64,000 nucleotides of DNA, from positions 177,511 to 241,510 of the forward strand of contig CAZOAL010000006.1 in the NCBI GenBank assembly GCA_964577695.1. Direction: 5' to 3'. This stretch comes from an uncultured bacterium (GTDB lineage: Bacteria > Poribacteria > WGA-4E > PCPOR2b). Position 1 is the stretch's first letter; each line of letters opens with the position of its first letter. Under the pieces are notes generated by a model that saw only the letters and a program-made list of their open reading frames with translations, was not told the DNA's origin and made no database searches. Below are positions 127 to 48,985 of this stretch, one piece after another. Position numbers and translations under genes: made by a program.

Positions 127-254
127 CATGTTTCAGAAAACCGTTTACACTTCGAGAACCCGTAAAACGTAAAACGTAATTCAGCCCACTTTACGTTTTA
201 CGTTTTACGCATCACGCCAAACATCAACACACTTTTTCGGGAATTTGAAACATG
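127..254. mobile_element. MITE-like repeat family A, copy 1 (catgtttcagaaa...aatttgaaacatg ends; internal hairpin of CGTAAAA heptamer arms)
   Basis: Imperfect terminal inverted repeats plus an internal palindrome; three more copies lie elsewhere in the window. Confidence 0.7.
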
Positions 255-279
255 CCCCTGTGAAGGGTGAAATCTGCAA

Positions 280-486
280 CTATGATTGGTGTTTTTCTAG
301 CATCCTTCCCACGAAGAAAATCAAGATGCCGGCGACCAGTGAACCCATCTCAGCCCCCATCGCTCTGCCCTCGCTTAAGCCAGTCGGGTTGGCGAATCCA
401 ACGTATAAACCAACAGCGAGAAATGCCATTCCCATCAATTCTAAGGTTTTACTAATGATAAACACATCTCCTCCGATTTCAGACAT
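280..486 (-). CDS. possible small two-TM membrane protein (68 aa, MSEIGGDVF...). Its ATG lies in the CATG terminus of the MITE copy at 484-602
   Basis: Hydrophobic ORF between two MITE copies; no recognisable family. Confidence 0.25.
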   Translation of the reverse strand: MSEIGGDVFIISKTLELMGMAFLAVGLYVGFANPTGLSEGRAMGAEMGSLVAGILIFFVGRMLEKHQS

Positions 487-602
487 GTTCCAGAAAACTG
501 TTGACACGTCGCGTAATGCGTAATTTCTATTTGCCCTTTACGCATTACGTATTACGCATTACGTAAAAGTATCAACTCCTTTTTGGAGAAATTTGAAACA
601 TG
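484..602. mobile_element. MITE-like repeat family A, copy 2 (contains ttgaca; internal CGCATTA/CGTAAT heptamer hairpin)
   Basis: Same termini as copy 1 (catgttccagaaaactgttgacac ... aaatttgaaacatg). Confidence 0.7.
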
Positions 603-611
603 ACACTCGTA

Positions 612-1325
612 TCAATACAGACTTTTGATGCGTCCCCACTGCACGGCTTTTTGGTTTTCATTTGGCTTAATTTTGGTGACAAATACTAAATCGCCAAGTA
701 AGTCTTCTGATTCCGTGAGCCCTACAGGGCCCCAGCCAATTTTATGGTGCAGGCTTCCGCCATCCGCATCATTATAATAAATGCCAAAGCCAATCCTGTC
801 ATCCTTCCGTGGTGTCTGTCGCAAGTTAAAACTCAACTCACAGGAGCGCCCATCGCTTCCCCATGCAATCGCCATGATGGGTGAATTAGGCGGTGGGAAA
901 TTCTCTCCAACGCGGAGGACATAACGATAAAGGTCGCTTCTGTGGCCCGTATGGTCTATATCGAGATAGAGCTCCAGATGGTCTTGACGAGAGAGTTTTT
1001 CAGGGTGAGTTTCGACCTGATCGTCGGTCAGTTTAATCGCAAGGTAAAGAAACCCATTTCGCCACACAGCCGCGAACGTTCCATCAAAGTCATCTGAGCT
1101 ATGCCAACGTTTGTTTTCTATAACATCCTGCTCCATCTTGCCCAATACCGCTCCTTCCCAGGCGGGGTCATCTAAGAATCCGTCGATCACTGGGGCAACG
1201 ACTGCCACTTCCGCTCTATATTGGAAAGAAAGCCCCGTGTCTGGAGCTATGAGATGGGCGAAACTACTAACCGCTGTCACAAGCAGGAAAACAGCGATCA
1301 GGAAAAACTGTTTTAAGAATTTCAT
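612..1325 (-). CDS. secreted protein with a CBM9-like / DOMON-like carbohydrate-binding domain
   Basis: N-terminal signal peptide; DGxLDDPAW and YLAIKxTDD motifs typical of CBM9-like modules. Confidence 0.5.
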   Translation of the reverse strand: MKFLKQFFLIAVFLLVTAVSSFAHLIAPDTGLSFQYRAEVAVVAPVIDGFLDDPAWEGAVLGKMEQDVIENKRWHSSDDFDGTFAAVWRNGFLYLAIKLTDDQVETHPEKLSRQDHLELYLDIDHTGHRSDLYRYVLRVGENFPPPNSPIMAIAWGSDGRSCELSFNLRQTPRKDDRIGFGIYYNDADGGSLHHKIGWGPVGLTESEDLLGDLVFVTKIKPNENQKAVQWGRIKSLY

Positions 1326-1715
1326 ATAACCTCCTTATATCATCAGGACTGACGCGCAGACGATTTTGCCCACTGAAGTGCGTAAGTCCTGATTATGTAA
1401 AATCAACACAGATGCGAAAAGATCTCTCCTTTTCGCGCCCGGATATATTGTATGAAACGTGAAATGTCAAGAGAGGTTTATAGGTCATGTGCCATTTCTT
1501 TAACGTTACCATTTCTTCGTCGCATCGGAAAAGCCGTTTGTAGTATACTGTCAGGGATAGTGTGTGTCAAGTGAAATAAGGTGGCAGGCGTACCCTACCC
1601 ATACTATTTTCTGTACATTTTCGGCGGATGTAAGGTATAATCGGTGAAAAGTGCGGCAGTTAAACTGGCATTTAAGTGGTCGAACAAAATGATTTCAATA
1701 AGTCCCCATCCAGAC

Positions 1716-1752
1716 TTCCGAAGTCTTTGAGACTTCGGAAGTCTCAAACTAA
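1716..1752. repeat. perfect palindrome tttgagacttcggaagtctcaaa (related to family C repeat termini), just upstream of the RBS of the next gene
   Basis: Seen in sequence; same gacttccgaagt motif as the family C elements. Confidence 0.6.
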
Positions 1753-1763
1753 GGAGGCAAATC

Positions 1764-2864: not shown

Positions 2865-2870
2865 GAGCGA

Positions 2871-2911
2871 GGCTTTAGCCGGTTCTTTTTTCGCTCTACC
2901 CGGCTAAAGCC
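2871..2911. terminator. stem-loop ggctttagccgg...ccggctaaagcc with a T-run in the loop, directly after the oxidoreductase stop
   Basis: 12-bp perfect inverted repeat seen in sequence. Confidence 0.45.
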
Positions 2912-2941
2912 TAAATCCAGGGGGCTATGACTCGCAGACAT

Positions 2942-3247
2942 TTATGCCTTCGCTCCAAGTTCAACTTGCTCCAGTGATTCAGCGCGTATCACTTGTGCCA
3001 ACAGTTGATCCAATGTTTCTATGGAATCGATTTCCTGCACACGTTGTGCAGTGTCAGGTGGCAATTCGCCGAATCTGATTTGTAACTGCCGTGCCAGGAT
3101 TTCGCGCTTCGCTTTCAATTCGCCTCTCAGGACGTAAGGATTTACAATCTGCATCGGGGTCACCTCCTCTGTGAGAAAGCAAATGGGCTTATGCACGCTT
3201 TCTGAGATTAACTTGCTCCAACGATTCAGCGTGTATAGCTTGTTCAA
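2942..3247 (-). CDS. stand-alone DUF4351-like C-terminal module; tandem duplicate of the 3' end of the adjacent Rpn-family gene
   Basis: About 70% identical to the C-terminus of the next ORF (EEVTPMQIVNPY...LPPDT.QRVQEIDSIE.LD...AESLEQV.L); about 250 nt duplicated. Confidence 0.5.
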   Translation of the reverse strand: MNKLYTLNRWSKLISESVHKPICFLTEEVTPMQIVNPYVLRGELKAKREILARQLQIRFGELPPDTAQRVQEIDSIETLDQLLAQVIRAESLEQVELGAKA

Positions 3248-4106
3248 ACAATTTATCTAATTCCTCTATTGAATCGATCTCCTGCACCCGTTGTACTGTG
3301 TCAGGAGGCAATTCACTGAATTTGGCTTGCAATAAACGGGTCAGTGTTCTGTGCATTGCCTTCAATTCGCCTTGAATTTCGCCTCTCCGGATGTAAGGAT
3401 TTACAATCTGCATCGGGGTCACCTCCTCTGTGACGATGCGTTTCTGAACTTCTTCCTCCTCTTCGGGAGTGAGTTTGAGATACGTTTCTAAAAAATGGAA
3501 CAGCAGGGCACTTTGCACTTCATTCAAATTCTGGCATTCACCGATGCCGACGATACACACAGCTTTCAATTCCACCCGGCTCATCTCGTTTTTGAAATTC
3601 ATCAGCGGGGCCAGACCATAAGCCACGGGATTTTTCGTCTTGAGATACTCCGCCGCAGAGAGCTTGGGTAAGCTGATGCAGTGAAAGCGGTAAAGCAAGT
3701 ATTCGTCACCGAAAAGCTCTTCCGAATACGTTTCCCAGCCGAGTCCAACGGGAGCAGATGGGAGGTAAAGCACCCCAGCAAAAAGCCGGGTATCACCTCG
3801 CAAACGAATTTGGCAAAAATATCGAAACATCCGAAGTGGAAAGCCACTTTTGCGATCCGCTTGAAATTCAATATGAATGAGGATTAACTCCGGCTCCCCT
3901 GAAAGGGTTTTGATCTCAACAAGGGTATCAACATAACGATGCGCTCCCTCTGGGAAATCGGTGAACTTCTCCTGTTCCAGAAATTTGACCGTTGTAAAAT
4001 CCAGTTTCGCCGCGTGTTCTGGGAAGAACAGTTGCATGAATTCAGCAAACAACTGGTGTAACAATTCTTTGAAGAGTTGATCGTGGTCGATTGTCTCGTT
4101 ATTCAT
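3189..4106 (-). CDS. Rpn-family recombination-promoting nuclease / putative transposase (PD-(D/E)XK, YhgA-like) with a C-terminal DUF4351 module
   Basis: N-terminal HDQLFKELLHQLF...IHIEFQA motifs; start taken at MNNETIDHDQ. Confidence 0.65.
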   Translation of the reverse strand: MNNETIDHDQLFKELLHQLFAEFMQLFFPEHAAKLDFTTVKFLEQEKFTDFPEGAHRYVDTLVEIKTLSGEPELILIHIEFQADRKSGFPLRMFRYFCQIRLRGDTRLFAGVLYLPSAPVGLGWETYSEELFGDEYLLYRFHCISLPKLSAAEYLKTKNPVAYGLAPLMNFKNEMSRVELKAVCIVGIGECQNLNEVQSALLFHFLETYLKLTPEEEEEVQKRIVTEEVTPMQIVNPYIRRGEIQGELKAMHRTLTRLLQAKFSELPPDTVQRVQEIDSIEELDKLFEQAIHAESLEQVNLRKRA

Positions 4107-4174
4107 GCTCCTTATTTTACAGCGATTTGAGAGCAAAGTCAAGATACAAACCATGTAAAGGCATATAGAACCCA

Positions 4175-12394: not shown

Positions 12395-12440
12395 TTGACA
12401 CAGGACGGTGCATAATACAGGGAAAGAGTCGGAGGGAACC

Positions 12441-13988
12441 ATGGACATCGTCGGTCATCGCACACTATCGAGCATCTTCAGCCAGTTTGCGGCGTACCAC
12501 CCTGACAAGACATACCTGATATTTGAGGACCTGGAAGGAAGGTGCGAGCAATGGAGCTTCGCCCAATTCGAGGCGCGGGTCAATCAGACCGCCCGCTGGT
12601 TGACGGCAATGGGGATTCAGCGGGGCGATGCGTTCGCCTACCATGCCCCCAACTCGCCGACGTTCGTTGCGCTGGCTATCGCCGCCAGCCGTATCGGGGC
12701 GGTCATGGTGCCCACTGATCATCGCGCTACCGTCGAGGAGCTCACCTATATCCTCGACCACTCCGAATCGCGGCTCGTCGTCACCGAGCCTGAACAACTG
12801 AGCGTTGCGCAGGTTGCGGCGTCGGCGACCTCTTGCGTGCAAGACATTGTGCTGTCTCGGTGTGAGCGTCCCAACAGGCATCCGATCTTCGAGCGCGAGA
12901 TTGCTAGACAGGAGACCGCTCCGCCTGCCGTCGAGACCAGCCCCGATGATGTCGTCCATACGCTGTACACCTCCGGCACAACCAGCAAGCCCAAAGGCGT
13001 GTTGCTCACCAACAGGGCGTTGATTTACGGGGCTGAAGTCTTCGTTCGGGCGAGCGGGCTGCGAAACGATGACCGGCACCTCATCACACTGCCTGTCTTT
13101 CACGCCGCCGCCCAGTGCCATGCTTTCTGGCCCTCTCTGGTCTGTGGGGCGAGTATTGTCCTGTCTCCAAGATTCAGCCCCACGCGGTTTTTTGGACTCG
13201 CCATCCGGCATGGTTGCACCATGGCGGCGTTATTCTCATCCCCGTTGCGGTTGTTGCTCGCCCAGCCCCCCAACGAGAGTTGGCGAGCGCATCGGCTGAG
13301 AAACGTCACCTTCGCCATCGCCCTGACTGACGGGCAGTTCGCCGAGTGGGATAGGCGGTTCGGCGCGCCACTTCAGCACCTCTGGGGGATGACCGAAACG
13401 GTGGGACTGCCGCTGATGAGTCCGCTTTATGGCCCCCGGAATCTGGCATCTATGGGCCGACCTGTGCTGGGCTACGAGGTGAAAATCGTTGACAACGATG
13501 GAAACGAAGTGCCCCCCGGACAGATTGGACAAATCGTCGTCGCAGCGAAGCCCGGTCACACCGTCATGAAGGGGTATTTCAAGAACGAGAAGGCGACCCA
13601 TGAGACGATTCGGGATGGCTGGCTATATACCGGCGACAATGCCTATTACGATGAGCACGGGTTCCACTATTTCGTAGACCGCGGCAAAGAGATGATCAAG
13701 CGGGGCGGCGAAAACATCGCTCCCAGCGAAGTCGAGGAGGTCATCAAACTCCTTGAGGGCGTGGCTGACGTCGCAGTTGTCGGCGTCCCCGACCCGCTGT
13801 ACGACGAGGTTCCCAAGGCGTTCGTTATTCTCCATCCGGGAGCCACGCTTAACGCCGAACAGATTCTCGAACAGTGTCGCAGGGCGCTCACGAAGTTCAA
13901 GGTGCCTGTGTCGGTGACGTTCTTGAAGGAATTTCCGAGAACCTCTGTTGGAAAAATTCAGAAGCATTTGTTGCGGAATCAGGAATAA
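12441..13988 (+). CDS. AMP-dependent acyl-CoA synthetase/ligase
   Basis: YTSGTTSKPKGV AMP-binding motif; RBS ggaggg before the ATG at 12441. Confidence 0.8.
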   Translation: MDIVGHRTLSSIFSQFAAYHPDKTYLIFEDLEGRCEQWSFAQFEARVNQTARWLTAMGIQRGDAFAYHAPNSPTFVALAIAASRIGAVMVPTDHRATVEELTYILDHSESRLVVTEPEQLSVAQVAASATSCVQDIVLSRCERPNRHPIFEREIARQETAPPAVETSPDDVVHTLYTSGTTSKPKGVLLTNRALIYGAEVFVRASGLRNDDRHLITLPVFHAAAQCHAFWPSLVCGASIVLSPRFSPTRFFGLAIRHGCTMAALFSSPLRLLLAQPPNESWRAHRLRNVTFAIALTDGQFAEWDRRFGAPLQHLWGMTETVGLPLMSPLYGPRNLASMGRPVLGYEVKIVDNDGNEVPPGQIGQIVVAAKPGHTVMKGYFKNEKATHETIRDGWLYTGDNAYYDEHGFHYFVDRGKEMIKRGGENIAPSEVEEVIKLLEGVADVAVVGVPDPLYDEVPKAFVILHPGATLNAEQILEQCRRALTKFKVPVSVTFLKEFPRTSVGKIQKHLLRNQE

Positions 13989-13998
13989 CTAATTTCAG

Positions 13999-14157
13999 CA
14001 TGTTTCAGAAACCTCTTTACACGCTTTGCCGTTGGAAGAAAGGAAGGAGGGGAAGGAAGGGAAGGAAATGCGCGCTCCCTTCCTTTTCTTCCATTCTTCC
14101 ATCCTTCCATCCTTCCATGCAAAGTATCAACTCATTTTTTCAGGAATTTGAAACATG
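13999..14157. mobile_element. MITE-like repeat family A, copy 3 (internal hairpin made of GGAAGG-type units)
   Basis: catgtttcagaaacctctttacac ... caggaatttgaaacatg ends. Confidence 0.7.
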
Positions 14158-14176
14158 CCTCAATAGGAGGATTTAT

Positions 14177-19216: not shown

Positions 19217-19325
19217 AAAACGTGAAACGTGAAACGTGAAACGTGATGAAGAGACCGTTCTTTTTCACGCATCACGCATCATTCTTCTCACGCATCACGC
19301 AGCACGCATCATTCCTTTCACGTTT
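19213..19325. repeat. hairpin-type repeat with tandem heptamer arms (GTGAAAC x3 / CACGCAT units) after the WD40 gene
   Basis: Seen in sequence. Confidence 0.6.
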
Positions 19326-20583: not shown

Positions 20584-20710
20584 CTTGAACAAAACAAGAT
20601 AGGTCATAAACTGCGATTTAATGTGCTGCATCTTGCATCTTGAATCCTGCATTCATCACAGATTCAAGATTCAGGATTCAGGATGCAAGAGTGTCATTTT
20701 GCAGTAGAGG

Positions 20711-21007: not shown

Positions 21008-21100
21008 GACTGACCTCGTGCGTAATTCGTAAGACGTAATGCGTAAAAAGACACTTGCTCTTGTTACGCATTACGCATTACGCATTACGTCTCACGTTTT
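21005..21100. repeat. hairpin repeat with CGTAATG/CGCATTA heptamer arms
   Basis: cgtaagacgtaatgcgtaa ... ttacgcattacgcattacgcattacg. Confidence 0.6.
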
Positions 21101-22181: not shown

Positions 22182-22231
22182 GATTTTATCCTCCTTTAGA
22201 TAGAGAGATGTCAAAACTGCTAATTAATGAG

Positions 22232-22360
22232 GCTTGGTCATAATGACTTGGAGATGCAGTTGTAGCCTAAGATTCTATCTTGGCTGCTGGCATGAGAACC
22301 AAGTTAGAAACTTGGGCTACGTAAAGATTTCATCCGAATTATGACCACTCCTCAACTCAT
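22232..22360. mobile_element. MITE-like repeat family B, copy 1 (ends ggcttggtcataat / gaattatgacc; palindromic core gtagcc.aagattctatcttgg)
   Basis: Seen in sequence; shared with copies at 22555 and 40652. Confidence 0.6.
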
Positions 22361-22554
22361 TTTGCATTCTGAATTTGCTGAAGGTCATCAGGGCGTTATG
22401 CGAGTCTCGGATGCCCGAGTCTCGATCTATCGGCGTTCGGGCATCTCGGATCAGCGGTGATAGGGTTTTAGAGAAACTCGCATGAGCCCCTTTAAGATTG
22501 TATTATAGCATATTGAGCCAGTGTTGGTAAACCCTATATTCCCTTAATTAGAAG

Positions 22555-22695
22555 AGGGTTGGTCATTATTCTCAGGGGAGGCAATCGTAGCCCAAGATTT
22601 CGACAAGCTCAACCCGGCGGATTCTATCTTGGCCCCTGGCGCATGGGCCAAGATAGAATCTTGGGCTACAACTCAACCGCCGGCGAATTATGACC
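22555..22695. mobile_element. MITE-like repeat family B, copy 2 (composite). Its terminal ATGACCAAGCC supplies the first ATG of the downstream giant ORF
   Basis: cgtagcccaagatt...ggccaagatagaatcttgggctac core; gaattatgaccaagcc end. Confidence 0.6.
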
Positions 22696-22719
22696 AAGCC
22701 TTACTTACCTAAATTTACA

Positions 22720-25700: not shown

Positions 25701-28700
25701 CACCATTCCTCAAACGCCAATCAATGAATCGACAATCGACAATCGAGGTTCGGTGAATGGAGGAACGGAGGAAGTAGAGCGGGCGGCTCGCCCGTTTGGA
25801 AAGATACGCAATACGCAATACGCAATACGCAATACGAACGACTCACCACTCACCATTCACCCATCACTCCCTGACGGCATCTGGTATTTCCACCTGCGTG
25901 CGATCGACAACGCGGGCAACCGGAGCGAAGTCGCTCACTATAAGGTGCAGATTGAGCACCAAGTCCCTGAAACACCAATCATCCGCTCACAGACCCACCC
26001 CCCGGAGCGTTGGTCAAAGAGCCATATTGTCGATCTGCGTTGGGACGAAGCCCCCACATTGAGCGGCCCCCCCCGCTACAGTTTTGCGCTCGACCACGCC
26101 CCCGACACCCTCCCTGACGATACGCCCGAACCAATTAGGGAGGGTGAAGCTCCCGCTGAACCCCACATTGAGCAAACGCTGGACGATGGGATTTGGTACT
26201 TTCATCTCAAGGCAATTAGCAGAACCGGAATTAGGAGCGAGACCGCCCATTATCGTATACAGATTGATAGCCAGATTGCGACGCCGGTCATCCGCAGCCC
26301 CTCGCACGCGGATAGCACGAGCTGGTATGCGAACCCATCGCCGGTGATCGAATGGACGATTGCGGACGACCTCTCTGGAATTGCCGGCTATTTCGGCGAA
26401 TGGGATTCCCAACCGAACACGATTCCGCAAACGCCTATTTCTCCCTCACCCCCCCTCACCCCCGGCCCCTCTCCCACAGGGGGGAGAGGGGAGCCACTTG
26501 ATAACGAAAACAGGGTGTTCGCACTCCAAAGCGGGGTCTGGTACTTCCACCTGCGCGCGATCGATAACGCCGGCAATCTCAGCGAAACGGCGCACTACCA
26601 GGTTCGCATCGATGCGTCCGCGCCGGCTGTGCCTGTCATCCAGTCCAGCTCCCATCCGGCGGGCGTTTGGCGGTCTCAGTCGGCTGTGGATATCCGCTGG
26701 AACGTTGGCACCCCCACCCCAACCCTTCCCCGCGGACAGGGAGGGGGCTTGAGTGGGATGGCTGGCTATAGCTTCGTGCTAGACCAGAAACCCACCACGT
26801 TGCCTGATGAGCGGATTGACGGCCTTCAGCCTCAAGTGACAACCACGCTTGCGGATGGCATCTGGTACTTCCACCTGCGAGCGCAGAGCAATACGGGACT
26901 GTGGAGCGAAACTGCCCATTACGAGATACGAATTGACACCCACCCTCCCGAAATCACGATTACGCTGCCGCCTAGTGGGGAGCGGGAGCGCGAGGCTCCT
27001 GCCGAGTGGTTCAGGCAAGCCATCAATGAATACGCTGGGGAGATGCGCGATGAGCTATCCGGCATTGACGAGACAACGCTCGAATATCGGTACGCGGGGC
27101 TGGATTGGAAGCCCTTCGTCAACGAGGCGTCAAGCGGTTGGCTTGACACAAACGAATTGCCCCATGTCACCCAGGCAAGCGGCGTGTCGTTGCAAGTGCG
27201 CGTTCGCGATCGCGCGGAGAACGTTGGGCTGTCTGAGGAGCGGCTGATTCGCGTGGATGTCGAACCTCCATCACTGACAGTGACAAGTCCCACGCATCCC
27301 CAGCAGGGAAGATGGTACGCCGATCCGAACCCGGTGGTTGAATGGACGGTTAGTAGCGACCTCTCCGGGATTGCAGATTACTTTTGGGTGTGGGACAACC
27401 AATCGGACACGATTCCCCGGCAGGGCCAGAAAACCGGAGACCCAGAAAGCCAGACAGCCAACGAGAGCAAGTCACAGGTTCGGCGGGAGCCTCACCCTCC
27501 CACCAGTCACAGGTTCGGCGGGAGCCTCACCCTCCCACTCACGGATGGCATCTGGTATTTCCACTTAATCGCCTTTGATAACGCCGGCAACCCAAGCGAG
27601 CCAGTCCACTACCGTTTTCAAATTGACACGCAACCGCCGAAGGGGACGATTCACATTCTCAGACCGGAGGTCATCAAGGGTCGTCCAAAATCTGTTCGCT
27701 ATCTTGAATCAAAGGAGGTTCCGCCGCGCGTCAGCTCAGGAGAAATTCGGATTGTTCTCACGCTATCGGAAGAGATGATTGAGCCCCCGAAACTCTTTTT
27801 CCAGCCGAATAGTCGGCAGGAGATAGCCCTTGCACTCGGCCGGAGCCTCGTGCTCCCACTGGATGGGGCCGAGGGGGCACAAAATCGCTCGCCGCTTCAA
27901 TGGCACGCCACATTACAGGTTTCGCCTCACACAGGCGATGGTGTGGGCAAGTTTCGATTTGTCGGCACTGATGGAGCTGGCAACCTTGGGGGTGAAATTA
28001 CGATGGGCATGGAACTCGTCATCGATACGCTCATCCATGCGGATGAAACGGAAGTCCAGCATCGAATCGGCGATAACGGCGCGATTGCGACAATCCCTCC
28101 CCGAGCGCTCCGCTCCGATGTACGCTTGCACCTTGAGGCGTCCCCCCATACCCCCCCCTCCAGGGGGGGGACGCAAGGTTCTGACCCTGGCTTCCCCCCC
28201 GTGGACGGGGGGGGTACGGGGGGGACCACAGGGGGGGGGACATCCAACCGCTACCGCCTCATCGCCTGGGATGGAACTGGACGTCCCCTTCCGAATCTGA
28301 CGTTTGTCGCGCCGATTGAGTTACAACTGCCAATCGATGCAACGCAGCCGATTGGGGCGGGAGATGCCGCGTATACAGTGCTTTACAACGATGGTGTCAG
28401 GACCCATCGGATCGGCACCGTCGTCGCAGGTGGCCAGGCGATCGCGTCCGTCAGTCAGATCGGCGAATTTCTGATTGCCCCCGCGCCCACGCCCAAGCGG
28501 AAGATTACCGGCGGGTGGGCGGCCCCGAATCCTTTCACGCCCAACCACAGCGGCGATGCCAGCGATCGAACAATCTTCCACGTTCAAACGCGGGGGGACG
28601 ATGTGACCTTCACCATCGAAATCTATGGCCTGACGGGACGACGCATTCGCACGTTGCGCAACGGATTGAATGTGTGGGATGGGTCAGATGAAAGCGGCAG

Positions 28701-28782
28701 GGTTGTCGAAAATGGTGTGTACATCTACCAGATTCATGCGGGGGATGAGGTGATTAGCGGGACCGTTGTCGTGGTGAGGTGA
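22720..28782 (+). CDS. giant secreted modular surface protein (about 2020 aa): N-terminal TIM-barrel-like putative glycosyl-hydrolase-like domain, about 10 tandem ~100-aa beta-sandwich modules (PSHP..RWYA..DLSGIAGY..WD.QPDTIP...DGIWYFHLRA.DNAGN) and a T9SS-type C-terminal sorting domain
   Basis: Repeated modules visible in the translation; C-terminal PNPFTPN...FTIEIYGLTGRRIRTL tail; signal-peptide-like N-terminus after M at 22720 or 22747. Confidence 0.65.
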   Translation: MVNRKKAAKMRDWKKKSYIILSIIVGSLYIFATSTVAQEIKRQSIPVGMFNVYATIDNNNTGLPTPDLRDVWQGVPTNWEGGYYPYEACNLVQHYWPKELPTDVPPGQDAYVVWWTRFLREVYEQGNEKGEVRLRAIVGPLFSHYEAFGEQWLINFIQRLCEWERSGPHDGVIAGWYLIEEPMGSGSHNFNVDTFEEMAKVVDKAETAGGFRHHDRYVDVSLDGAFFTPQGLARFCRPADVVMVSSSSYLWLTSGTQPVFNTRYRDLAFSMNQVRRTVFPDHDQHGLPRPKIHLVLQAYDPMGFGQPTHWEMRQQIREALTLDFELLGNQPVAPADGIWFFWWPGLTFENKNRVDDWLYGRQIAEAIELEVAEVTGNGGETRSVNVPTASRFAFPPLVPFNPDDGIIPYELAKSGLVTIEILDMNGSKVQAFDMGIQSAGRLHRFGGPRWLPLSTQPDGRYIFRQFLNSVPVDSVEVEVQRQPRLFSPSHVPNIWSNDNTIEVTWRPPALGAGLGGFSFLWSNSPFSIPPRTVALTPSDVTYTSPPLPDGKSHYFHLLSVDANGEWGETSHLGPFWIDTIPPALPTDVVSSSHKTGIWSSANVIDIKWSAAPPPQSPPRAGGEEGPPPLPAGGTGGGASLRGYSIVWDRQPFTLPPAEINVGPAVTALSTPPLVDGIWYLHLRPADVAGNWTSDAVHLGPFQIDTHSPNPPSDLRGVSHQVGVWSNRAEIELEWTAASDETSGIKNYLIVWDTSPDTHPTPDANPSIFLPPLLAGGGAGNSPKVSYRGPALVDGDTHYVHLRAVDGAGLTTDETLHLGPFRIDATPPGDIRGFAAYGVEPPPTPPLSPLPASGEVPLDLNKWLISPQMILAWQVSTDSGSSVAVYEITRVRPETGEQQTFQINADAPSQWTPAGLSDGAWVFRLRAGDNAGNWSAYSDLTLKIDTTVPTPILNSPSHPNSERWYADANPIVEWMIERDLSGIAGYLGEWSDQPDTIPQTPINESTIDNRGSVNGGTEEVERAARPFGKIRNTQYAIRNTNDSPLTIHPSLPDGIWYFHLRAIDNAGNRSEVAHYKVQIEHQVPETPIIRSQTHPPERWSKSHIVDLRWDEAPTLSGPPRYSFALDHAPDTLPDDTPEPIREGEAPAEPHIEQTLDDGIWYFHLKAISRTGIRSETAHYRIQIDSQIATPVIRSPSHADSTSWYANPSPVIEWTIADDLSGIAGYFGEWDSQPNTIPQTPISPSPPLTPGPSPTGGRGEPLDNENRVFALQSGVWYFHLRAIDNAGNLSETAHYQVRIDASAPAVPVIQSSSHPAGVWRSQSAVDIRWNVGTPTPTLPRGQGGGLSGMAGYSFVLDQKPTTLPDERIDGLQPQVTTTLADGIWYFHLRAQSNTGLWSETAHYEIRIDTHPPEITITLPPSGEREREAPAEWFRQAINEYAGEMRDELSGIDETTLEYRYAGLDWKPFVNEASSGWLDTNELPHVTQASGVSLQVRVRDRAENVGLSEERLIRVDVEPPSLTVTSPTHPQQGRWYADPNPVVEWTVSSDLSGIADYFWVWDNQSDTIPRQGQKTGDPESQTANESKSQVRREPHPPTSHRFGGSLTLPLTDGIWYFHLIAFDNAGNPSEPVHYRFQIDTQPPKGTIHILRPEVIKGRPKSVRYLESKEVPPRVSSGEIRIVLTLSEEMIEPPKLFFQPNSRQEIALALGRSLVLPLDGAEGAQNRSPLQWHATLQVSPHTGDGVGKFRFVGTDGAGNLGGEITMGMELVIDTLIHADETEVQHRIGDNGAIATIPPRALRSDVRLHLEASPHTPPSRGGTQGSDPGFPPVDGGGTGGTTGGGTSNRYRLIAWDGTGRPLPNLTFVAPIELQLPIDATQPIGAGDAAYTVLYNDGVRTHRIGTVVAGGQAIASVSQIGEFLIAPAPTPKRKITGGWAAPNPFTPNHSGDASDRTIFHVQTRGDDVTFTIEIYGLTGRRIRTLRNGLNVWDGSDESGRVVENGVYIYQIHAGDEVISGTVVVVR
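24553..24633. repeat. G/C mini-palindrome (poly-C-CCGCGGGCAGGGGG ... CCCCCTGCCCGCGGGGGGG) lying in frame inside the giant CDS
   Basis: Encodes PPPQSPPRAGGEEGPPPLPAGGTGGGA; shares the CCGCGG core with similar elements at 26710-26748 and 59992-60060. Confidence 0.6.
25775..25862. repeat. heptamer-arm repeat element ((ACGCAAT)x4 ... (ACTCACC)x3, preceded by palindrome cgggcggctcgcccg) lying in frame in a loop of one module of the giant CDS
   Basis: Translated as ERAARPFGKIRNTQYAIRNTNDSPLTIHPS; same unit type as intergenic hairpin repeats. Confidence 0.6.
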
Positions 28783-32340: not shown

Positions 32341-32445
32341 CAAAGCAGGTAGGTCAGGCTGCGCCTGACACCATATAGTCAGGCACAGCCTGACCTACTT
32401 ACTGACACCATATAGTCAGGCACAGCCTGACCTACTTACTCTGAC
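32341..32445. repeat. complex imperfect hairpin (aggtaggtcaggctgcgcctgac...cagcctgacctactt) followed by a 37-bp tandem direct repeat (gacaccatatagtcaggcacagcctgacctacttact x2)
   Basis: Seen in sequence. Confidence 0.6.
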
Positions 32446-34921: not shown

Positions 34922-35779
34922 TCACCACCGCGGCGGCGTTTCAACAAACTGCTGATAGTACCCCTCAATATTGGCTTCAGCGGCGTCGCCTTCGTGGATG
35001 AGGATGCGAAACCGTTGCGTCAAGCGTCCACCATGAGGAAGCTCGTACTTTTCCAGCAGCGTGAAATTCGTGAGAAATGTGCCGTAATTCCGCGTAAAAA
35101 AGGGCGATGGCGGATTCGATGGGTGGTTCATCAACGTAATCCCGACCTTTTTCCCTGCAACGACCCCGCTATAGTCCGTCCAATTCGCATACTGCCGCAT
35201 CGCTTCCTCTTCGTTGCGTTGCCCGTTCGAGTTCAGAATGGTCCCGCCATCTTCCACATCAATCGTATCGGCGACGCGCGCGCCCAGAAACGAATGGGTA
35301 TCCTGCCCAAATATCAGATCGGTCTGGCTGGCGATAAGCGTACTGGTCAGATCGATGATATGCGCCGCTTCGCCGGGGATGACCGTGAAGTTGCGCGCCT
35401 CGTCCAGCATATGAACTCCCTTCTTCGTAATCCAGCCGTTATGCGTCATGACGTGGATGCCGTTAGCGTCGATCTCATGCTCACTTCTTTCAAGAACGAT
35501 ATCCCCTTCATTCGGGCGGGTCGGATTGTTGTCGTGAAAAAAGTTAATCCCATTCACGTTGGCGTGCCCGATGAAAATCGATTTGTGGTGGTTGAAACGA
35601 TAGGCACTGGTACACGTCACTTCACATCCGCTGGGTGAATAGACGGGATAGAAGTCAGGACGCGACTTGTACATATCGCCGTAGCGGATACAGCCTTTGT
35701 TATAAGCGAGGAAAAATGTCTCGCCGTTATAGAATTTGAAACGGAGTTCTTCTTCAACAATTCTTGGGTTGATTGCCAT
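34922..35779 (-). CDS. PmoA-family / DUF6807-like protein
   Basis: FYPVYSPSGCEVT...NHHKSIFIGHANVNGINFF pattern. Confidence 0.45.
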   Translation of the reverse strand: MAINPRIVEEELRFKFYNGETFFLAYNKGCIRYGDMYKSRPDFYPVYSPSGCEVTCTSAYRFNHHKSIFIGHANVNGINFFHDNNPTRPNEGDIVLERSEHEIDANGIHVMTHNGWITKKGVHMLDEARNFTVIPGEAAHIIDLTSTLIASQTDLIFGQDTHSFLGARVADTIDVEDGGTILNSNGQRNEEEAMRQYANWTDYSGVVAGKKVGITLMNHPSNPPSPFFTRNYGTFLTNFTLLEKYELPHGGRLTQRFRILIHEGDAAEANIEGYYQQFVETPPRW

Positions 35780-35822
35780 GGGGATACTCCTTATTCAGGT
35801 TCAGGTTGACGCCGTGCTTTTG

Positions 35823-35938
35823 CTCATATTTTGTGAGACTTCCGAAGTTTGATACGATACTTTTGCTGAATCGGTTTTTCATGGTTTCGCATCGTCTGAG
35901 TTCACCTCGCGTATTGAAACTTCGGAAGTCTGGGTCTC
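35823..35938. mobile_element. MITE-like repeat family C, copy 1 (tgagacttccgaagtttga ... ttgaaacttcggaagtctgggtctca)
   Basis: 19-bp terminal inverted repeats; shared core tttgctgaatc.gtttttcatggtttcgcatcgtct with the copy at 49479. Confidence 0.65.
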
Positions 35939-35989
35939 ACTTTTGCTTATAACTGAAAAAGTCGTAAGCATTCATCGTTTTGTCAAAAG

Positions 35990-36313
35990 TCAATCGGGAT
36001 GGGCATCTGACTCCGATTGAGGTTCATCATAGCTAACGATTTCCCCGGTGGTTGGGTCAAAGATGGCCCCGTAACTCCCCGGTGCTGCAAAATCCACATC
36101 GGTCTGCATTGCCAAGTGGGTATTCGCGTCCAGCAAATAGTAGTATCCGCAGTACCGGTGAGCGGCGTCCTCGATCCGTTTGACGTGGTAGCAGTGGCTA
36201 TGAAACTGGATGGTGTTATCGTAGATGATGATAAACCGATCACCGAACAGGCTGTGGGCAATTTGATTGATAAGGAATGGGTCAATTTTGGGGGATAGGG
36301 TCGCGTCCGTCAA
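35990..36313 (-). CDS. hypothetical protein
   Basis: ORF only. Confidence 0.35.
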   Translation of the reverse strand: MTDATLSPKIDPFLINQIAHSLFGDRFIIIYDNTIQFHSHCYHVKRIEDAAHRYCGYYYLLDANTHLAMQTDVDFAAPGSYGAIFDPTTGEIVSYDEPQSESDAHPD

Positions 36314-36314
36314 A

Positions 36315-36425
36315 TCCTACAAACCTCCGTTTTGAGACCAGGAAGGAAGGGAAGAAGGGAAGGATGGAAGGAGGCAATCTTCCATCCTTCCTTTCACGTT
36401 TCACGCATCACGCATCACGTTTCTA
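36315..36425. repeat. hairpin repeat with GGAAGG-unit arms plus CACGTTT/CACGCAT heptamers
   Basis: Seen in sequence. Confidence 0.55.
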
Positions 36426-38132
36426 CTCCCGCGTCAGAATGAGCGTGTCAATCCGGCGATTCTTATCCCTGCCAGCCGGCGTGCTGTTATCTGCAATTGG
36501 GTGTGATTCACCTAAACCGACAGCGGTCATCCGTGACGCCGGCACCCCACATTTTCGGGAGAGGTATTTCATAAAGCCGTTCGCACGCTTCTCCGTCAAT
36601 CTGAGATTCGTATCGGAATCCCCAGAGCTGTCGCTATGCCCCTCAATACGGACTTTGTAATCGGCATACGTTTTGATAATCTCAGCCAATTGCCCCAGCA
36701 TTGGGAAGTATTTGGGGGTAATTTCCGAAGCCCCCGGCGCAAAAAGATTACCGCTGAAACGAATCAATATCCCTTTCGGGTTGCGCTCTGTTTCCGCATC
36801 CGGAATGGCTTTGGCGGCGTTGAGAATACGAGTTTCAATCGTTTCAATCTTTTGGGCTTTCTCAATTGCCTGCGTTATCAGTGCAGCGCTCTGTTCCGCT
36901 AAGGTGATAGCGCGTTCATAGTTCCCATCGGCTAAGGCACTTTTGGCATTCGCCAGCGATGCTTTCGCCTGTTCGTAGGTTCCAGGCATAAAGATTGGGG
37001 CTTGCGTTCTCGCTTCTCGGTTGACCCCTTCTTCAGCCTTAAAGATTGCATCTTTGGCGTGAGCTATCTTTTCCTCCCTTGCTTCCCTTTCGAGACGTTG
37101 CTTTTCTGCGACTTCGGCAATGGCGTAAGCCTCACGCGCACTGGTTCCGGCTTGCGCGGCTAACTGCAATGCCTGGTCATACTGTTCCCCCTTCAATGCC
37201 ATATTTGCCTGTTCCAACGTGGACTTTGCACGTTGAAAAGGGGCCTCAGCATGCTTAAAGGCGTTCACCTTATCCGCCCGATCGATTTCAGCCTGCGCTT
37301 TTGTGACTGCCACTTTTGCGTTGGTGTATGCTTCGAGTTTTGCCGCTTGTACCTGATTGGTTGCGACATTCGTTCCAGCGATCGCCGCAATCCGAGCCGC
37401 AGTTGCCCGCTCTTCGGCTTGCGCCGCCGTCGCTTTGGCTTGATCGAAGTTATCCTGGTTGAGCAGGGACTTTGCTTGATCGATCAGGTTTTCAGCGGCT
37501 TTATAGTCGTTCACGGCATAAATGAGCGCTCTGGCATCCTTGGCGGCGTCGAGTACCAGTTGGGCCTTCCCGATTGCCAATTGCGTCTGAGACCTGAATA
37601 GGGCTTTTTGCGCCTCAACCCTTGCCGCATCCGCTTCGGCTTGAGCAACCATGGCACGCTGATCGGCGCGGGTAGCTCTAGCTACAGCGCGGTTTGCACG
37701 TTCCTCCGCGATGGTCTGACGATTTTGGGAGGCTTGAACCTTATATTCCATCTCCTGAATGATCGCTTTCGATATCTCCTCGTGCGCCAGGTCAATCCGC
37801 TGTTGAGCAATCTGTCGACGTGCCTCTGCTTCTGCAATCTGCGCCTCCATCTGTGACTGAAATGCCAATTCCAAACTTTTAACGCCGTCCCCTGCCTGTT
37901 GGGCTTGCTGCGCCTCCTGTAGCAAGTTGACTGCCTTCGCCATCTGTTCCTTGGCATAGTCTTCGGCTTGTGACCGCCTCGCGTTTGAAATTGCGTTTTG
38001 GGCATCGCGCTGGCTCGGTTCTAGCAGGATTGGATCGATTTTTCCTGCACATCCGATCGATATTCCCAGGAGCGCCAGCAAGCCCGGCACCCATGTCAAT
38101 CGATTCAACTGCATGATATATGTTCCCTTCAA
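36423..38132 (-). CDS. OmpA-family lipoprotein with a long coiled-coil N-terminal region
   Basis: Lipobox LGISIGC; C-terminal OmpA_C motif (GHSDSSGDSDTNLRLTEKRA...). Confidence 0.75.
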   Translation of the reverse strand: MKGTYIMQLNRLTWVPGLLALLGISIGCAGKIDPILLEPSQRDAQNAISNARRSQAEDYAKEQMAKAVNLLQEAQQAQQAGDGVKSLELAFQSQMEAQIAEAEARRQIAQQRIDLAHEEISKAIIQEMEYKVQASQNRQTIAEERANRAVARATRADQRAMVAQAEADAARVEAQKALFRSQTQLAIGKAQLVLDAAKDARALIYAVNDYKAAENLIDQAKSLLNQDNFDQAKATAAQAEERATAARIAAIAGTNVATNQVQAAKLEAYTNAKVAVTKAQAEIDRADKVNAFKHAEAPFQRAKSTLEQANMALKGEQYDQALQLAAQAGTSAREAYAIAEVAEKQRLEREAREEKIAHAKDAIFKAEEGVNREARTQAPIFMPGTYEQAKASLANAKSALADGNYERAITLAEQSAALITQAIEKAQKIETIETRILNAAKAIPDAETERNPKGILIRFSGNLFAPGASEITPKYFPMLGQLAEIIKTYADYKVRIEGHSDSSGDSDTNLRLTEKRANGFMKYLSRKCGVPASRMTAVGLGESHPIADNSTPAGRDKNRRIDTLILTRE

Positions 38133-39539: not shown

Positions 39540-39655
39540 CATGAAACGTAAAACGTAAAACGTGATGGAGGACTGGAAGATTGGAGGCTTGTCTTTACCC
39601 ATCCTTCCGTTCCTTCCATTCTTCCTTCTTTTACATTCTTCCATCTTTTACCCCG
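39540..39655. repeat. hairpin repeat: (ACGTAAA)x2 heptamers followed by GGAAGG-unit arms
   Basis: Seen in sequence. Confidence 0.55.
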
Positions 39656-40477: not shown

Positions 40478-40651
40478 GATGAATAAGCCTCTGGTTCGGC
40501 AGAAGCCGAACCCTCGCATCTGAACGGTTACATTTTAACAGCATACGGATCGTGCGCCTGCGAATCAATTCGCAGGCTAAAACAGACGACTTGAGTTTTT
40601 AGCCCCCCGAGGGAGCGGGGCAGGCCGATCTTGAGATAAGGGCTAACGGAG

Positions 40652-40780
40652 GGATGGTCATCATTCGCCGACGGTTGAGTTGTAGCCCAAGATTCTATCT
40701 TGGCCCCTTACGCAAGGGCCAAGTTAGAAACTTGGGCTACGATTGCCTCCCCTGGGAATTATGACCAACCCTCAACTAAC
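40652..40780. mobile_element. MITE-like repeat family B, copy 3
   Basis: ggatggtcatcattcg...gttgtagcccaagattctatcttggcc...ggccaagttagaaacttgggctac...gaattatgaccaacc. Confidence 0.6.
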
Positions 40781-43808: not shown

Positions 43809-43819
43809 GACCGTTTCTG

Positions 43820-45667: not shown

Positions 45668-45706
45668 GGTTTCTCGTTACTAAATTTTCAATCTCCATAA
45701 ATCTTT

Positions 45707-46459: not shown

Positions 46460-46486
46460 CAGCCAACATCTCCCTTCCTAATCATT

Positions 46487-46523
46487 CTGCACAACCGTTG
46501 AAAAGGTTCGCAACCTTTTCAAC
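46487..46523. terminator. perfect hairpin aaccgttgaaaaggtt-cgc-aaccttttcaacggtt downstream of the racemase-family gene
   Basis: 16-bp stem seen in sequence. Confidence 0.4.
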
Positions 46524-46542
46524 GGTTCAAACGTTTTACGCC

Positions 46543-47634
46543 TCACGCATACTGCTCCAATACCGCTCGCTCGATCTCAATTCCCAGACCCGGCCCTTGC
46601 GGGACGGGGATGTAGCCTTCCACTGCACGGATGGGTTCTTTGGCAAGATCGGTGCGGAGGCGGTTTTCGGTCATATCAAATTCAAATAACGAAGGGATGG
46701 GATTCAGCACTTGCGGGGAATCGGGAATTGTCGCTTGCCAATGGAGCGTTGCGGCGAGGCGGATGCTGCTTCCCCACATGTGCGGCAGCACGCGGACATA
46801 GTTGGCACTCGCCATCGCGGCGATCTTGCGGCATTCTGTGAATCCGCCAGCGATGCTAATATCGGGCTGCACAATGTCAAGCCCGCGCTTCTGGATGAGA
46901 TCGCGGAATGCCCAGCGTCCCCGGAGCATTTCGCCACCGGCAATTCGGATGTTGAGGGCGTGCCGAATCTCGACATAGCCATCCACATCAGCCGTCGTGA
47001 TTGGTTCCTCATACCAGAACAGGTCGTTCTCGGCGATCTTCCGCCCGATGTCAATCGCTGTTCCGACATCGTAACCGCAGTTGGCATCGACTGCCAGAAG
47101 TATCGAATCCCCGATTGCTTTCCGCACCGCCGCGACATTTGTCACATCATAAGCTTCTCCAAAACCGATTTTCATCTTTACGGCGGGGAAACCTTGATCA
47201 ACGTAACTTTTTGCCTCATCCATGAGGGCTTGCGTGATGTTGGCTTTGTCTTTCTTGAAAAGCCCACTGGCATAAGCAGGGATGCGCTCTCTGAACGCCC
47301 CACCGAGCAGGCGATAAATTGGCAACTCCAACGTTTTCCCCATGATGTCCCACAACGCAATATCCACCGCGCTCAACGCCGCGATGTCGCTCCCACCCTT
47401 TTGATAGATTGCATTCCAGATGACCTCGACATCAAACGGATCTTTCCCAATCAGATGGGCATTGATGACCGATTGGCTCGGTGTCGCTAATCCTTCCCCC
47501 CAGCCCGTGATACCTGCATCGGTGATGACCTCCACAACGCCGGCACTCCTCGACCTTGACCAATCCTGTGAGTTTGCAAACGGTTCGACCAGAGGGTATC
47601 TAAGGTTATAAGTTTTGACTTCAGTGATTTTCAT
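46543..47634 (-). CDS. mandelate racemase / muconate lactonizing enzyme family protein (enolase superfamily)
   Basis: MKITEVKTYNLRYPL...GITGWGEG N-terminal capping-domain pattern. Confidence 0.7.
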   Translation of the reverse strand: MKITEVKTYNLRYPLVEPFANSQDWSRSRSAGVVEVITDAGITGWGEGLATPSQSVINAHLIGKDPFDVEVIWNAIYQKGGSDIAALSAVDIALWDIMGKTLELPIYRLLGGAFRERIPAYASGLFKKDKANITQALMDEAKSYVDQGFPAVKMKIGFGEAYDVTNVAAVRKAIGDSILLAVDANCGYDVGTAIDIGRKIAENDLFWYEEPITTADVDGYVEIRHALNIRIAGGEMLRGRWAFRDLIQKRGLDIVQPDISIAGGFTECRKIAAMASANYVRVLPHMWGSSIRLAATLHWQATIPDSPQVLNPIPSLFEFDMTENRLRTDLAKEPIRAVEGYIPVPQGPGLGIEIERAVLEQYA

Positions 47635-47718
47635 GGAAAATCTTGCGGCGGAACCCCCACGATTCAATGGCGGTGAGGGAGCCGCGCCTCCTTCCCTTTT
47701 TTGAGTTTCCTTCCCCCC

Positions 47719-48792
47719 CTAAGCGGGCCGCAGATTAATCTCGCTCCGTTGTTCGGCGGACTGATACATCGCCTCCGTGATGCGAGCAACAGTCAAACCG
47801 ATTGCGCCGGTGTCGATCAGTTCCACGCGCCCAAGTAAGCCCCAGACGAAGTGCTGCTGAGAGCCATCGAAGCCATTGCCCATGTATCCAAGCGATCGCT
47901 GCCGACGCTCATAAGCGTCGATATTGAAGCTGACATCGGCGTCCATTCCGTACATATCCGTGTAGAATGTGAAAGGCTCTAGCTTGATTCCACCTTTCGA
48001 GCCCATAATGCGGTCCCCTTCGCCGCCATCAATATTGGCAGCCCACGCCTCCTCCACGAACATCGTGATGTTACCGCTGAAGCGCACAAAGCCGGTCCCT
48101 AACTCTTCGACATTGTAGCCGCTTTCCTTCCGGCGTTTTTCGTCCATATCAATCTCCTGGAAGGTTGACGCAGTCACCGTCTCAACTTCTGGGTTATCTA
48201 GCAGATAGACCATACGCGCCATATGATAGACTGCCATGTCTAGCAGTGTGCCACCCCCCGACTTCTCCTTCTGCACGAAATGGGGTGTTGCATAGCCATC
48301 AACGTACACCCGTCCACGGCGGCGATAATGGCTCGTCTTGACATAGTAAACCCGGCCTAACGCCCCTTCTTCGATCAAGCGTTTGGCAGTCCGCGCTTCT
48401 TTGGTAAAAACAGTGCCCATCTGCACCGCCAGTTTTTTCCCGGTCCGCTGTGCGGCATCATACATCGCCTGCGCTTCCGTGCCTGTTTTTGCCATCGGCT
48501 TTTCGCAGTAGACATGCTTCCCTGCCTCAAGTCCGGCGATTGTGACTGGCGCGTGCAGGAAGTTTGGCAGACAGACATCAACGCTGTCAATCTCATCAAT
48601 CTTCAGCAAGTCTCGGTAATCTGAAAATACGTGCGGGATACCGTTCTCTTGAGCCACACGTTGCGCCTCAACCGGATCGACATCCGCCACTGCGATGATC
48701 TCGACATCATCCCTCATCGATTTATAGCCATGAATATGGCTCTTGCCGATGATGCCGGTTCCAATAATACCAACTTTGAGTTTATCTGGCAT
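47719..48792 (-). CDS. Gfo/Idh/MocA-family oxidoreductase
   Basis: KVGIIGTGIIGKSH Rossmann motif; EKPMA motif. Confidence 0.75.
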   Translation of the reverse strand: MPDKLKVGIIGTGIIGKSHIHGYKSMRDDVEIIAVADVDPVEAQRVAQENGIPHVFSDYRDLLKIDEIDSVDVCLPNFLHAPVTIAGLEAGKHVYCEKPMAKTGTEAQAMYDAAQRTGKKLAVQMGTVFTKEARTAKRLIEEGALGRVYYVKTSHYRRRGRVYVDGYATPHFVQKEKSGGGTLLDMAVYHMARMVYLLDNPEVETVTASTFQEIDMDEKRRKESGYNVEELGTGFVRFSGNITMFVEEAWAANIDGGEGDRIMGSKGGIKLEPFTFYTDMYGMDADVSFNIDAYERRQRSLGYMGNGFDGSQQHFVWGLLGRVELIDTGAIGLTVARITEAMYQSAEQRSEINLRPA

Positions 48793-48850
48793 ATCTTTCT
48801 CCTAAAATAAATTGCAATGCGTGAAACGTGAAACAGCAAATGAGCAAAGG

Positions 48851-48985
48851 CATGTTTCAGAAAACGGTTGACACTTCGAGAGCATGATGCGTGAGGCGTA
48901 AAACGTGAAACGTAAGAAGAGCTCCCTTTACGTTTTACGTTTTACGAAAGCAGTTCAACACCTTTTTTCGGAAATTTGAAACATG
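48851..48985. mobile_element. MITE-like repeat family A, copy 4 (contains ttgacac; internal CGTGAAA/CGTAAAA heptamer hairpin)
   Basis: catgtttcagaaaacggttgacac ... cggaaatttgaaacatg. Confidence 0.7.

Follow-up and report, generated by a model that had tools for sequence, protein, structure and literature searches.

The stretch of DNA analyzed here (the window, 64,000 nt in length) comes from an uncultured bacterium of the Poribacteria (assembly GCA_964577695.1, contig CAZOAL010000006.1) and carries exactly four copies of a short repeat, referred to as family A, all on the + strand, at positions 125-256, 482-604, 13997-14159 and 48849-48987; coordinates refer to the window throughout, and L-numbers (e.g., L001, L085, L183) label metagenome or related loci. 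A first-pass annotation had described four copies of a transposon-like repeat at these places, and their location was confirmed by sequence, by alignment, by a census of the ends and by profile searches, while their extent grew by 2 nt on each side, the true ends being GGCATGTTTCA...TGAAACATGCC (i.e., GG-CATG...CATG-CC). The four copies align over approx. 30 nt per end and have unrelated middles. The left 13-mer CATGTTTCAGAAA occurs in the window three times exactly and once with one mismatch, and the right 13-mer AATTTGAAACATG four times exactly; the remaining matches to both 13-mers show 1-2 mismatches and are found in numbers near chance. Profile hidden Markov models (HMMs) of the ends, built from 53 usable copies for the left end and from all 87 distinct copies described below for the right end, recovered precisely the four copies (E values of 1e-10 to 5e-6), with the next match only at E ~0.1 (>= 0.09). 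As these models retrieve nothing beyond the four copies, the window is free of decayed or solo ends.

Copy 1 (125-256, +; 132 bp) has the left end GGCATGTTTCAGAAAACCGTTTACAC and the right end CATCAACACACTTTTTCGGGAATTTGAAACATGCC and lies 23 nt past the stop codon (280-282) of a small minus-strand open reading frame (ORF); its core hairpin (161-209) is made of (CGTAAAA)x2.7, an 11-nt loop and (TTTACGT)x2.9, the two arrays (161-179 and 190-209) forming 19 consecutive pairs. Copy 2 (482-604, +; 123 bp) includes GTTGACAC and has slightly degenerate tips (GACATGTTCCAG...CATGAC, i.e., GACATG...CATGAC). It is located 7 nt past the stop codon (612-614) of a minus-strand gene for 237 amino acids, and tandem arrays and folding define a core hairpin (511-564) of GCGTAAT units facing (TTACGCA/TTACGTA)x3.7. 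Copy 3 (13997-14159, +; 163 bp), the tips of which are also slightly off (AGCATG...CATGCC), represents a subfamily with a GGAAGG core and the left-end variant CAGAAACCTCTTTACAC; in its core (14034-14118), a GGAAGG/GGAAGGAAG array (14034-14067) stands opposite a CCTTCC/CTTCCATC array (14078-14118). This copy starts 8 nt past the stop codon of an acyl-CoA ligase gene (12408-13988) and ends 18 nt before an ATG at 14178. Copy 4 (48849-48987, +; 139 bp) has perfect GGCATG...CATGCC tips, also includes GTTGACAC, and is placed 10 nt past the stop codon (48998-49000) of a minus-strand gene for 143 amino acids and 56 nt before the start (48792) of a Gfo/Idh/MocA gene. CGTAAAA/CGTGAAA units face (TTTACGT)x2.9 in its core hairpin (48897-48946; tandem arrays and folding), and two CGTGAAA units lie outside the copy at 48820-48834, 14 nt from its left tip. 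The internal units CGTAAAA, TTACGCA, GGAAGG and CGTGAAA were borne out by the tandem-array search, and all four copies are indeed intergenic and close to gene ends, at 7-23 nt past the upstream stop codon (23, 7, 8 and 10 nt, respectively).

Copies 1 and 2 are spanned by an independent Joint Genome Institute (JGI) assembly (L183, 99.98% identical) and hence are not assembly artefacts; short-read contigs of the same strain (L001 and L002) terminate within copy 4. The JGI assembly also contains a fifth copy of the source genome (L183:16875-17016), approx. 8 kb to the left of the window and 2 nt past a stop codon, which has a GGAAGG core and is followed by TTTACG/TTTCACG units that are frame-less, i.e., not enclosed by family-A ends. 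Copy 3 and this fifth copy have the GGAAGG core and the left-end variant (CAGAAACCTCTTTACAC; CAGAAACCTCTT) in common, indicating that subfamilies arise by descent. All five copies of the source genome are on one strand (chance probability 1/16).

Beyond the window, the census of termini was extended by a metagenome scan with a 21-base right-end pattern, which returned at least 120 loci; almost every locus listed carries a member of the family, in some cases only a partial copy that lacks a left end. Among the matches listed there are 87 distinct full elements of 64-443 bp (CATG to CATG), a size that agrees with that of transposable elements of the miniature inverted-repeat type (MITEs; under ~600 bp, non-coding), as do the 123-163 bp of the window copies, where overlapping ORFs are read-throughs of flanking frames. 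The members among the listed loci apparently come from Poribacteria, the best named relatives of the flanking proteins being 'Candidatus Poribacteria bacterium' (79-89% identity). Six 21.5-kb pieces representing approx. three relatives at ~80-83% protein identity contain no copy, which indicates a patchy distribution among Poribacteria. No match to family A was found in plasmid and phage collections, and a search of genome contigs with a pattern of 18 specified bases, which was too loose, gave among the matches listed only chance ones, none with a nearby left end (mostly ATG contexts, and one inside a Poribacteria coding gene). A literature search found the end sequences in no relevant context and no description of Poribacteria MITEs.

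The tips are conserved across the family, the left tip being present in 82-84 of 86 flanks and the right tip in 83 of 85 (~96%; 87 distinct copies). Terminal inverted repeats, as required of a prokaryotic MITE, are present in family A; those previously described as imperfect repeats of ~25 bp are, however, better defined as having two parts, namely an 11-mer on the outside that matches perfectly (GGCATGTTTCA / TGAAACATGCC) and, further in, a box AAAA-N-GTT(G/T)ACA, with an additional 8-9 nt between the two at the right end. Two types of ends occur, i.e., the type found in the window (...GAAAAC.GTTGACACTTCGAG / GTGTCAAC.) and a second type (...GAAAATAGTTTACATTTCGG / TGTCAACTAATTTTTGAG) that is common in one lake metagenome contig set (Ga01941xx). 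Copies of the lake type show a fixed mispair (TTTACA in the left end vs. TTGACA in the right end), which indicates that conservation concerns the sequence of the ends, as it would for binding by a protein, and not their pairing.

The inner box also bears on the possibility that family A serves as a portable promoter in which the TTGACA/TTTACA box drives neighbouring genes. A -35-like hexamer is found in both ends of most copies, and promoters are carried by some bacterial MITEs, e.g., BrickBuilt (PMC4596501). The TTGACA of copies 2 and 4, which the first-pass annotation had taken to face outward, is nevertheless part of the left-end inner box and reads into the element, and the box of the right end, on the other strand, reads inward too. 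No -10 partner at a spacing of 16-18 nt was detected inside any window copy, and its expected place falls in the variable core; one weak promoter call on the minus strand, which begins at copy 2's tip, is directed away from the element. A promoter function hence appears very improbable.

Duplication of the target site was assessed for the 76 copies that have GG/CC tips and for which 20 nt of flanking sequence were available, with permuted flanks providing the expectation. Direct repeats of 8 bp abut the tips in 9 of the 76 copies (perfect) and in 2 further copies (one mismatch), as compared to 0.15 and 0.19 expected, and no signal was observed at 7, 9 or 10 bp in the same copies; flanks of the insertion sites are AT-rich. 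The nine perfect duplications belong to L070, L085, L086, L092, L103, L113, L123, L125 and L150. Target-site duplications are thus a property of the family (9 perfect and 2 with one mismatch among 76), but none is found at the window copies. The smallest element (L125; 64 bp from CATG to CATG) consists of two ends without a hairpin and is flanked by the perfect duplication TCACTTCA, indicating that the ends suffice and that the core is not needed for insertion.

These duplications argue against a different mode of spread, in which family A would be a palindrome of the repetitive extragenic palindrome type (REP/REPIN) moved by RAYT, a Y1 tyrosine transposase, and not by a DDE transposase. Like REP/REPIN, which carry GTAG or CGTC tags and depend on a Y1 transposase (PMC3733652), family A forms extragenic palindromes that accumulate past stop codons between co-directional genes, and a gene with a weak match to PF01797 (Y1_Tnp) lies 1.3 kb from the related locus L169. 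The ends of family A (GGCATG...CATGCC), on the other hand, show neither tag, and they are true terminal inverted repeats of ~25-35 nt, not REP units of 20-40 nt. REPINs are not known to make target duplications, whereas exact 8-bp duplications are present in family A. Movement by a RAYT can thus be considered highly unlikely.

Comparison with relatives revealed spacers without the element. Locus L085 contains an element with the duplication CAACATAG between CN-hydrolase and radical-SAM genes; in the orthologous locus (L167-L172; 93% protein identity), alignment of the flanks extends as far as GACAACA on one side and resumes at AACATAGGGTGAAT on the other, and the family-A ends are absent. The spacer of L167 has another, hairpin-bearing insert of ~250 nt with GGCAAGAT arms; as the ends of this insert were found nowhere else in the related loci compared, a second MITE family is not claimed for it. 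For the Gfo/Idh/MocA gene that adjoins copy 4, the upstream region of three relatives (L182, 97%; L179, 89%; L180, 85%) has the promoter-proximal sequence in common with the window but no family-A end, and in L182 (97% identical Gfo protein) a heptamer array continues directly into CGTGAAA units of the 48820-48834 type, with no family-A end between. Insertion polymorphism was thus observed twice (L085 vs. L167-L172, and copy 4 vs. L182, L179 and L180), so that the empty sites proposed as a check on mobility exist as orthologous spacers at 85-97% protein identity without ends, though they are not perfectly clean. The first-pass annotation had reasoned that copies occurring always at orthologous positions would point to conserved regulatory structures; as copies are missing from orthologous spacers of relatives, mobile DNA is favored. 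Other comparisons were uninformative, as orthologs of the acyl-CoA ligase gene beside copy 3 (79-83%) have other downstream neighbours and show only that these pieces contain no copy, and as synteny breaks beside the element in L159 (94% DNA identity to window positions 56595-57262) and in the pair L057/L139.

Overall, these data lead us to conclude, with a probability of roughly 0.75, that family A represents a foldback-type MITE of Poribacteria, a small DNA transposon without coding capacity that is moved in trans. Mobilization of a non-autonomous element in trans, one of the options raised in the first-pass annotation, is supported at the family level by the 8-bp duplications, the 64-bp copy, the empty orthologous spacers, the occurrence of both orientations relative to flanking genes and the presence of composites with the same core at unrelated loci. 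The family also displays, as a family, the features of prokaryotic MITEs, with the exception of a cognate autonomous element, none being found in the window and ~0.9 Mb of loci. A putative DDE-type transposase encoded elsewhere would bind the two-part ends and make 8-bp staggered cuts in the target. The core would be dispensable cargo that diversifies via replication slippage and unit turnover, and subfamilies with different units would descend from different source copies. Insertions would persist where coding sequence and ribosome-binding sites are spared. Copies would survive mainly where co-directional genes are separated by short spacers, from a few to a few tens of bases past a stop codon, as damage is least there; in these places they would probably be co-transcribed and form long stem-loops, with protection or punctuation of mRNA as a possible secondary effect.

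Several observations weigh against a MITE moved in trans. The empty sites are not clean, as L167 has another insert and as gene order is altered beside the Gfo gene in the 85-89% relatives. None of the five source-genome copies shows a border direct repeat, though their ends are intact, and duplications across the family are bimodal, being perfect or absent, with none at two mismatches. Of 50 lake-type copies without duplication, 32 carry a left end with no deviation over 20 nt. Simple neutral ageing cannot account for this pattern, as it would erode ends and duplications together, yet perfect ends are found without duplications; the pattern may instead result from selection or from gene conversion at the ends, from transposition of a replicative or intramolecular kind, or from recombination between copies. 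Replicative or intramolecular events of the IS26 type commonly leave copies without duplications and would fit the bimodality. As retrieval demanded an exact right end (the left end being less biased), conservation of the right end is in part an ascertainment effect. Most cores are unique in the sample, unlike those of typical MITE families, which are near-identical throughout. Finally, no transposase gene was found between or beside matching ends (pairs 0.45-5 kb apart) in the window and ~0.9 Mb of loci, so that the matching transposase which the first-pass annotation proposed to look for did not turn up there.

With regard to an autonomous partner, every pair of ends 0.45-5 kb apart encloses ordinary genes and not transposases, and the only insertion sequence (IS) with visible ends in related DNA (L163; ends AGAACCTGTTTTAAAA, Pfam DDE_Tnp_1) has ends that differ from those of family A. 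The window itself contains a 184-nt direct repeat (2942-3125 vs. 3189-3372; 74% identical) inside or beside genes that JGI annotation labels faintly as Transposase_31 (YhgA-like) and weakly as DUF4351; these regions look like paralogous fragments and not like a family-A transposase. IS6/IS26, ISL3 and IS256 make 8-bp duplications and have ends starting with GG, and the duplication length and GGC-starting ends of family A may recall these families. The IS26 end, which we take to be GGCACTGTTGCAAATAGT, agrees with GGCATGTTTCAGAAAATAGT at ~12 of 19 positions.

Across the family, the core consists of inverted arrays of 7-8-nt units that are mostly unique to each copy. Cores with at least 85% identity recur at unrelated loci in five pairs of copies; L141 and L143, otherwise near-identical, are told apart by a single CGTGAAA unit, and L074 and L135 have a nested G-run module in common (by eye), so that this composite appears to have been copied after nesting. 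Folding as RNA was carried out for copies 1, 2 and 4 (copy 3 was too long for the batch), and each forms a single long stem-loop on either strand with z-scores of -4.9 to -7.4 (-7.4 and -5.0 for the two strands of copy 1). The arms show a polarity, with a G-rich 5' half and a C-rich 3' half in 67 of 84 copies and the reverse in 3; this near-constant G-rich 5' arm does not fit a simple account. No Rfam 15 family matched at gathering score anywhere in the window.

Tiny palindromic modules are nested at recurrent points of family-A copies, following AATAGT where they lie in the left end and preceding TCAACTAA where they lie in the right one. One of them, CCCCGTTA.AAAA...TTTT.TAACGGGG, is found in, e.g., L060, L076, L137 and L167 and is absent from the window; another, CCCCCTTACCAAAGGGGGTAGGGGGTTGT, is found in L066, L070, L077, L144 and L152. 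A TCA duplication may accompany these modules in one case.

Hairpins and arrays of 7-nt units (CGTGAAA, TTACGCA, GGAAGGA) also occur in the window in frame-less form, at 19218-19322, 20627-20690, 21019-21089, 36340-36423, 39544-39651, 56068-56120 and 63689-63771, mostly a few nt from a stop codon and between co-directional genes; 5 of 6 such hairpins have the G-rich 5' polarity (by eye). Insertion of family A into pre-existing heptamer arrays is not a general rule, as tandem 7-8-mers are present in the 70 nt next to the element in only 3 of 80 copies.

The gene context was classifiable for 47 copies, with co-directional neighbours in 40, convergent neighbours in 3 and divergent neighbours in 4. 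Both element orientations relative to flanking transcription occur, without bias (16 vs. 24; P = 0.27). The gap between the upstream stop codon and the element has a median of 17 nt and stays within 30 nt in 28 of 40 copies; copies are nearer to the stop than to the start in 24 vs. 16 cases, which is not significant (P = 0.27; crude start calls).

These positions raise the alternative that family A is a domesticated or host-selected stem-loop placed after stop codons as operon punctuation (i.e., protection of mRNA 3' ends, attenuation or termination), with transposition only its origin. Such a role could coexist with the MITE interpretation; as a pure alternative, it would mean that the window copies are no longer mobile. 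The proximity to stop codons (7-23 nt in the window; within 30 nt in 28/40 metagenome cases) is consistent with punctuation, as are ends that stay intact without duplications, the lack of decayed window copies and the occurrence of frame-less heptamer hairpins in similar post-stop positions (19218-19322, 21019-21089, 36340-36423, 39544-39651 and 63689-63771). The stem is flanked by an A-run and a T-run, as in bidirectional terminators, and the hairpin persists in L182, where the family-A end is missing; as the L182 hairpin aligns to the copy 4 core without an adjacent end, hairpins may outlive ends, which keeps a host function under consideration. Conversely, none of the four copies contains a terminator-like site according to a search for intrinsic terminators (a GC-rich stem directly followed by a T-run), the T-run being > 10 nt from the strong stem and the stem base being AT-rich, and the terminator modules considered in the first-pass annotation thus find no support in these copies. 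Moreover, what is conserved at the ends is the sequence, including its fixed mispair, and not a structure; close relatives lack the element in the orthologous spacers, and the distance of the copies to the stop is not significantly shorter than that to the start. Judged from sequence, punctuation by a host-selected stem-loop would be possible but clearly less probable than a mobile MITE.

A more speculative version, which we consider doubtful, would make the heptamer palindrome itself the key unit. Hypervariable, G-arm-first stem-loops after stop codons would then act as operon punctuation, seeded by family A and outliving its ends, while an active process keeps ends and arm complementarity as units turn over; candidates for this process are template switching in the hairpin, gene conversion or replicative IS26-like transposition. 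If correct, such a process would also explain the intact ends without target duplications.

The terminal CATG was also suggested to donate a start codon (ATG at 484-486, read as CAT on the + strand). This ATG is the start assigned by the JGI gene caller to a minus-strand ORF of 68 amino acids; on the other hand, an in-frame GTG 21 nt downstream lies 4 nt after a GGAGG and represents an equally good start, so that donation is possible and not shown. ORFs predicted to start at the terminal ATG were found for 8 of 40 copies, approx. the chance level for an open frame (ORF caller), which neither demonstrates nor excludes start codon donation.

When compared to known systems, family A is a new family of a familiar kind with odd features. 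Like bacterial MITEs in general, a group that includes Correia/NEMIS of Neisseria, RUP and ERIC (reviewed in PMC2229807), it is short (~60-450 bp) and non-coding, has terminal inverted repeats and a duplication of fixed length, occurs in many dispersed intergenic copies and folds into a long stem-loop, and MITEs are often co-transcribed with their neighbours. It shows no sequence similarity to Correia/NEMIS, RUP or ERIC. Copies of Correia, RUP and ERIC are alike over their whole length, whereas family A is conserved only at the ~30-nt ends and its middle is nearly unique to each copy. Correia and RUP duplicate TA, as compared to 8 bp in family A. The closest known designs are the BrickBuilt MITE and, by architecture only, the eukaryotic Foldback, Galileo and Tetris elements. 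BrickBuilt of Porphyromonas gingivalis has an interior tandem array of variable copy number, a conserved leader and tail and small inverted-repeat ends, and is always intergenic (PMC4596501); it differs in having a direct array of one 23-nt unit and promoter activity, whereas family A has two inverted arrays of 7-8-nt units, many unit types and no promoter signal. The Foldback-type transposons FB, Galileo and Tetris (PMC3573991, PMC4079207) resemble family A in their conserved tips, inverted arms of short tandem repeats and strong variability in length and sequence. They differ in being eukaryotic, kilobase-scale and tied to P or other eukaryotic transposases, so that the likeness is an architectural analogy and no homology is implied. 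As a further lead, cyanobacterial STRR heptamers and small dispersed repeats reportedly include intergenic tandem heptamers and very small modules that nest in other repeats. To our knowledge, STRR arrays have not been described as framed by transposon ends, and they belong to another phylum and have other units.

For Poribacteria, which are known only from metagenomes and single cells, these data define an apparently active small transposon family with 11-bp tips and an 8-bp duplication as its signature. The element breaks short-read assemblies (L001, L002 and L182 stop inside it), so that recognizing it makes genomes easier to reconstruct, and its use as a strain marker is conceivable. Conserved ends of ~30 nt around a nearly unique palindrome of 7-8-nt units represent a bacterial counterpart of eukaryotic foldback elements and provide a natural system for studying how small a part of a MITE suffices for it to move (64 bp here) and in what way hairpins made of tandem repeats diversify. 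If a function is established for the post-stop hairpins, they would exemplify operon punctuation seeded by a transposon.

The window contains further repeats. Palindromic poly-C/poly-G modules (e.g., CCCCCCCCGTGAACGGGGGGGG) lie inside long ORFs without closing them, at 24553-24631, 25042-25051, 26067-26074, 26449-26455 and 28151-28239 in the + strand ORF 22690-28782, at 59992-60056 in the minus-strand ORF 59695-61191 and at 63207-63225 in the minus-strand ORF 62925-63590. They recall in-frame palindromic elements such as those of Rickettsia, and similar G-run modules are nested within family-A copies of metagenome loci. A second MITE-like family has three copies of ~125-150 nt (22229-22352, 22554-22701 and 40649-40772) with the ends GAGG.TTGGTCAT.AT ... 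ATTATGACCA..CCT and the internal palindrome GATTCTATCTTGGCC...GGCCAAGATAGAATC. A dispersed repeat of 127 nt is found at 35836-35962 and 49481-49607 (87% identical), with one copy near the 143-aa gene that adjoins copy 4 of family A, and perfect tandem duplications (two copies each, 100% identity) are located at 27470-27538 (35-nt units) and 32365-32440 (37-nt units). At approx. 35000-36500, GC skew turns from positive to negative, and gene orientation changes at the same place from mostly + to mostly -, so that the genes converge there as they do at a replication terminus.

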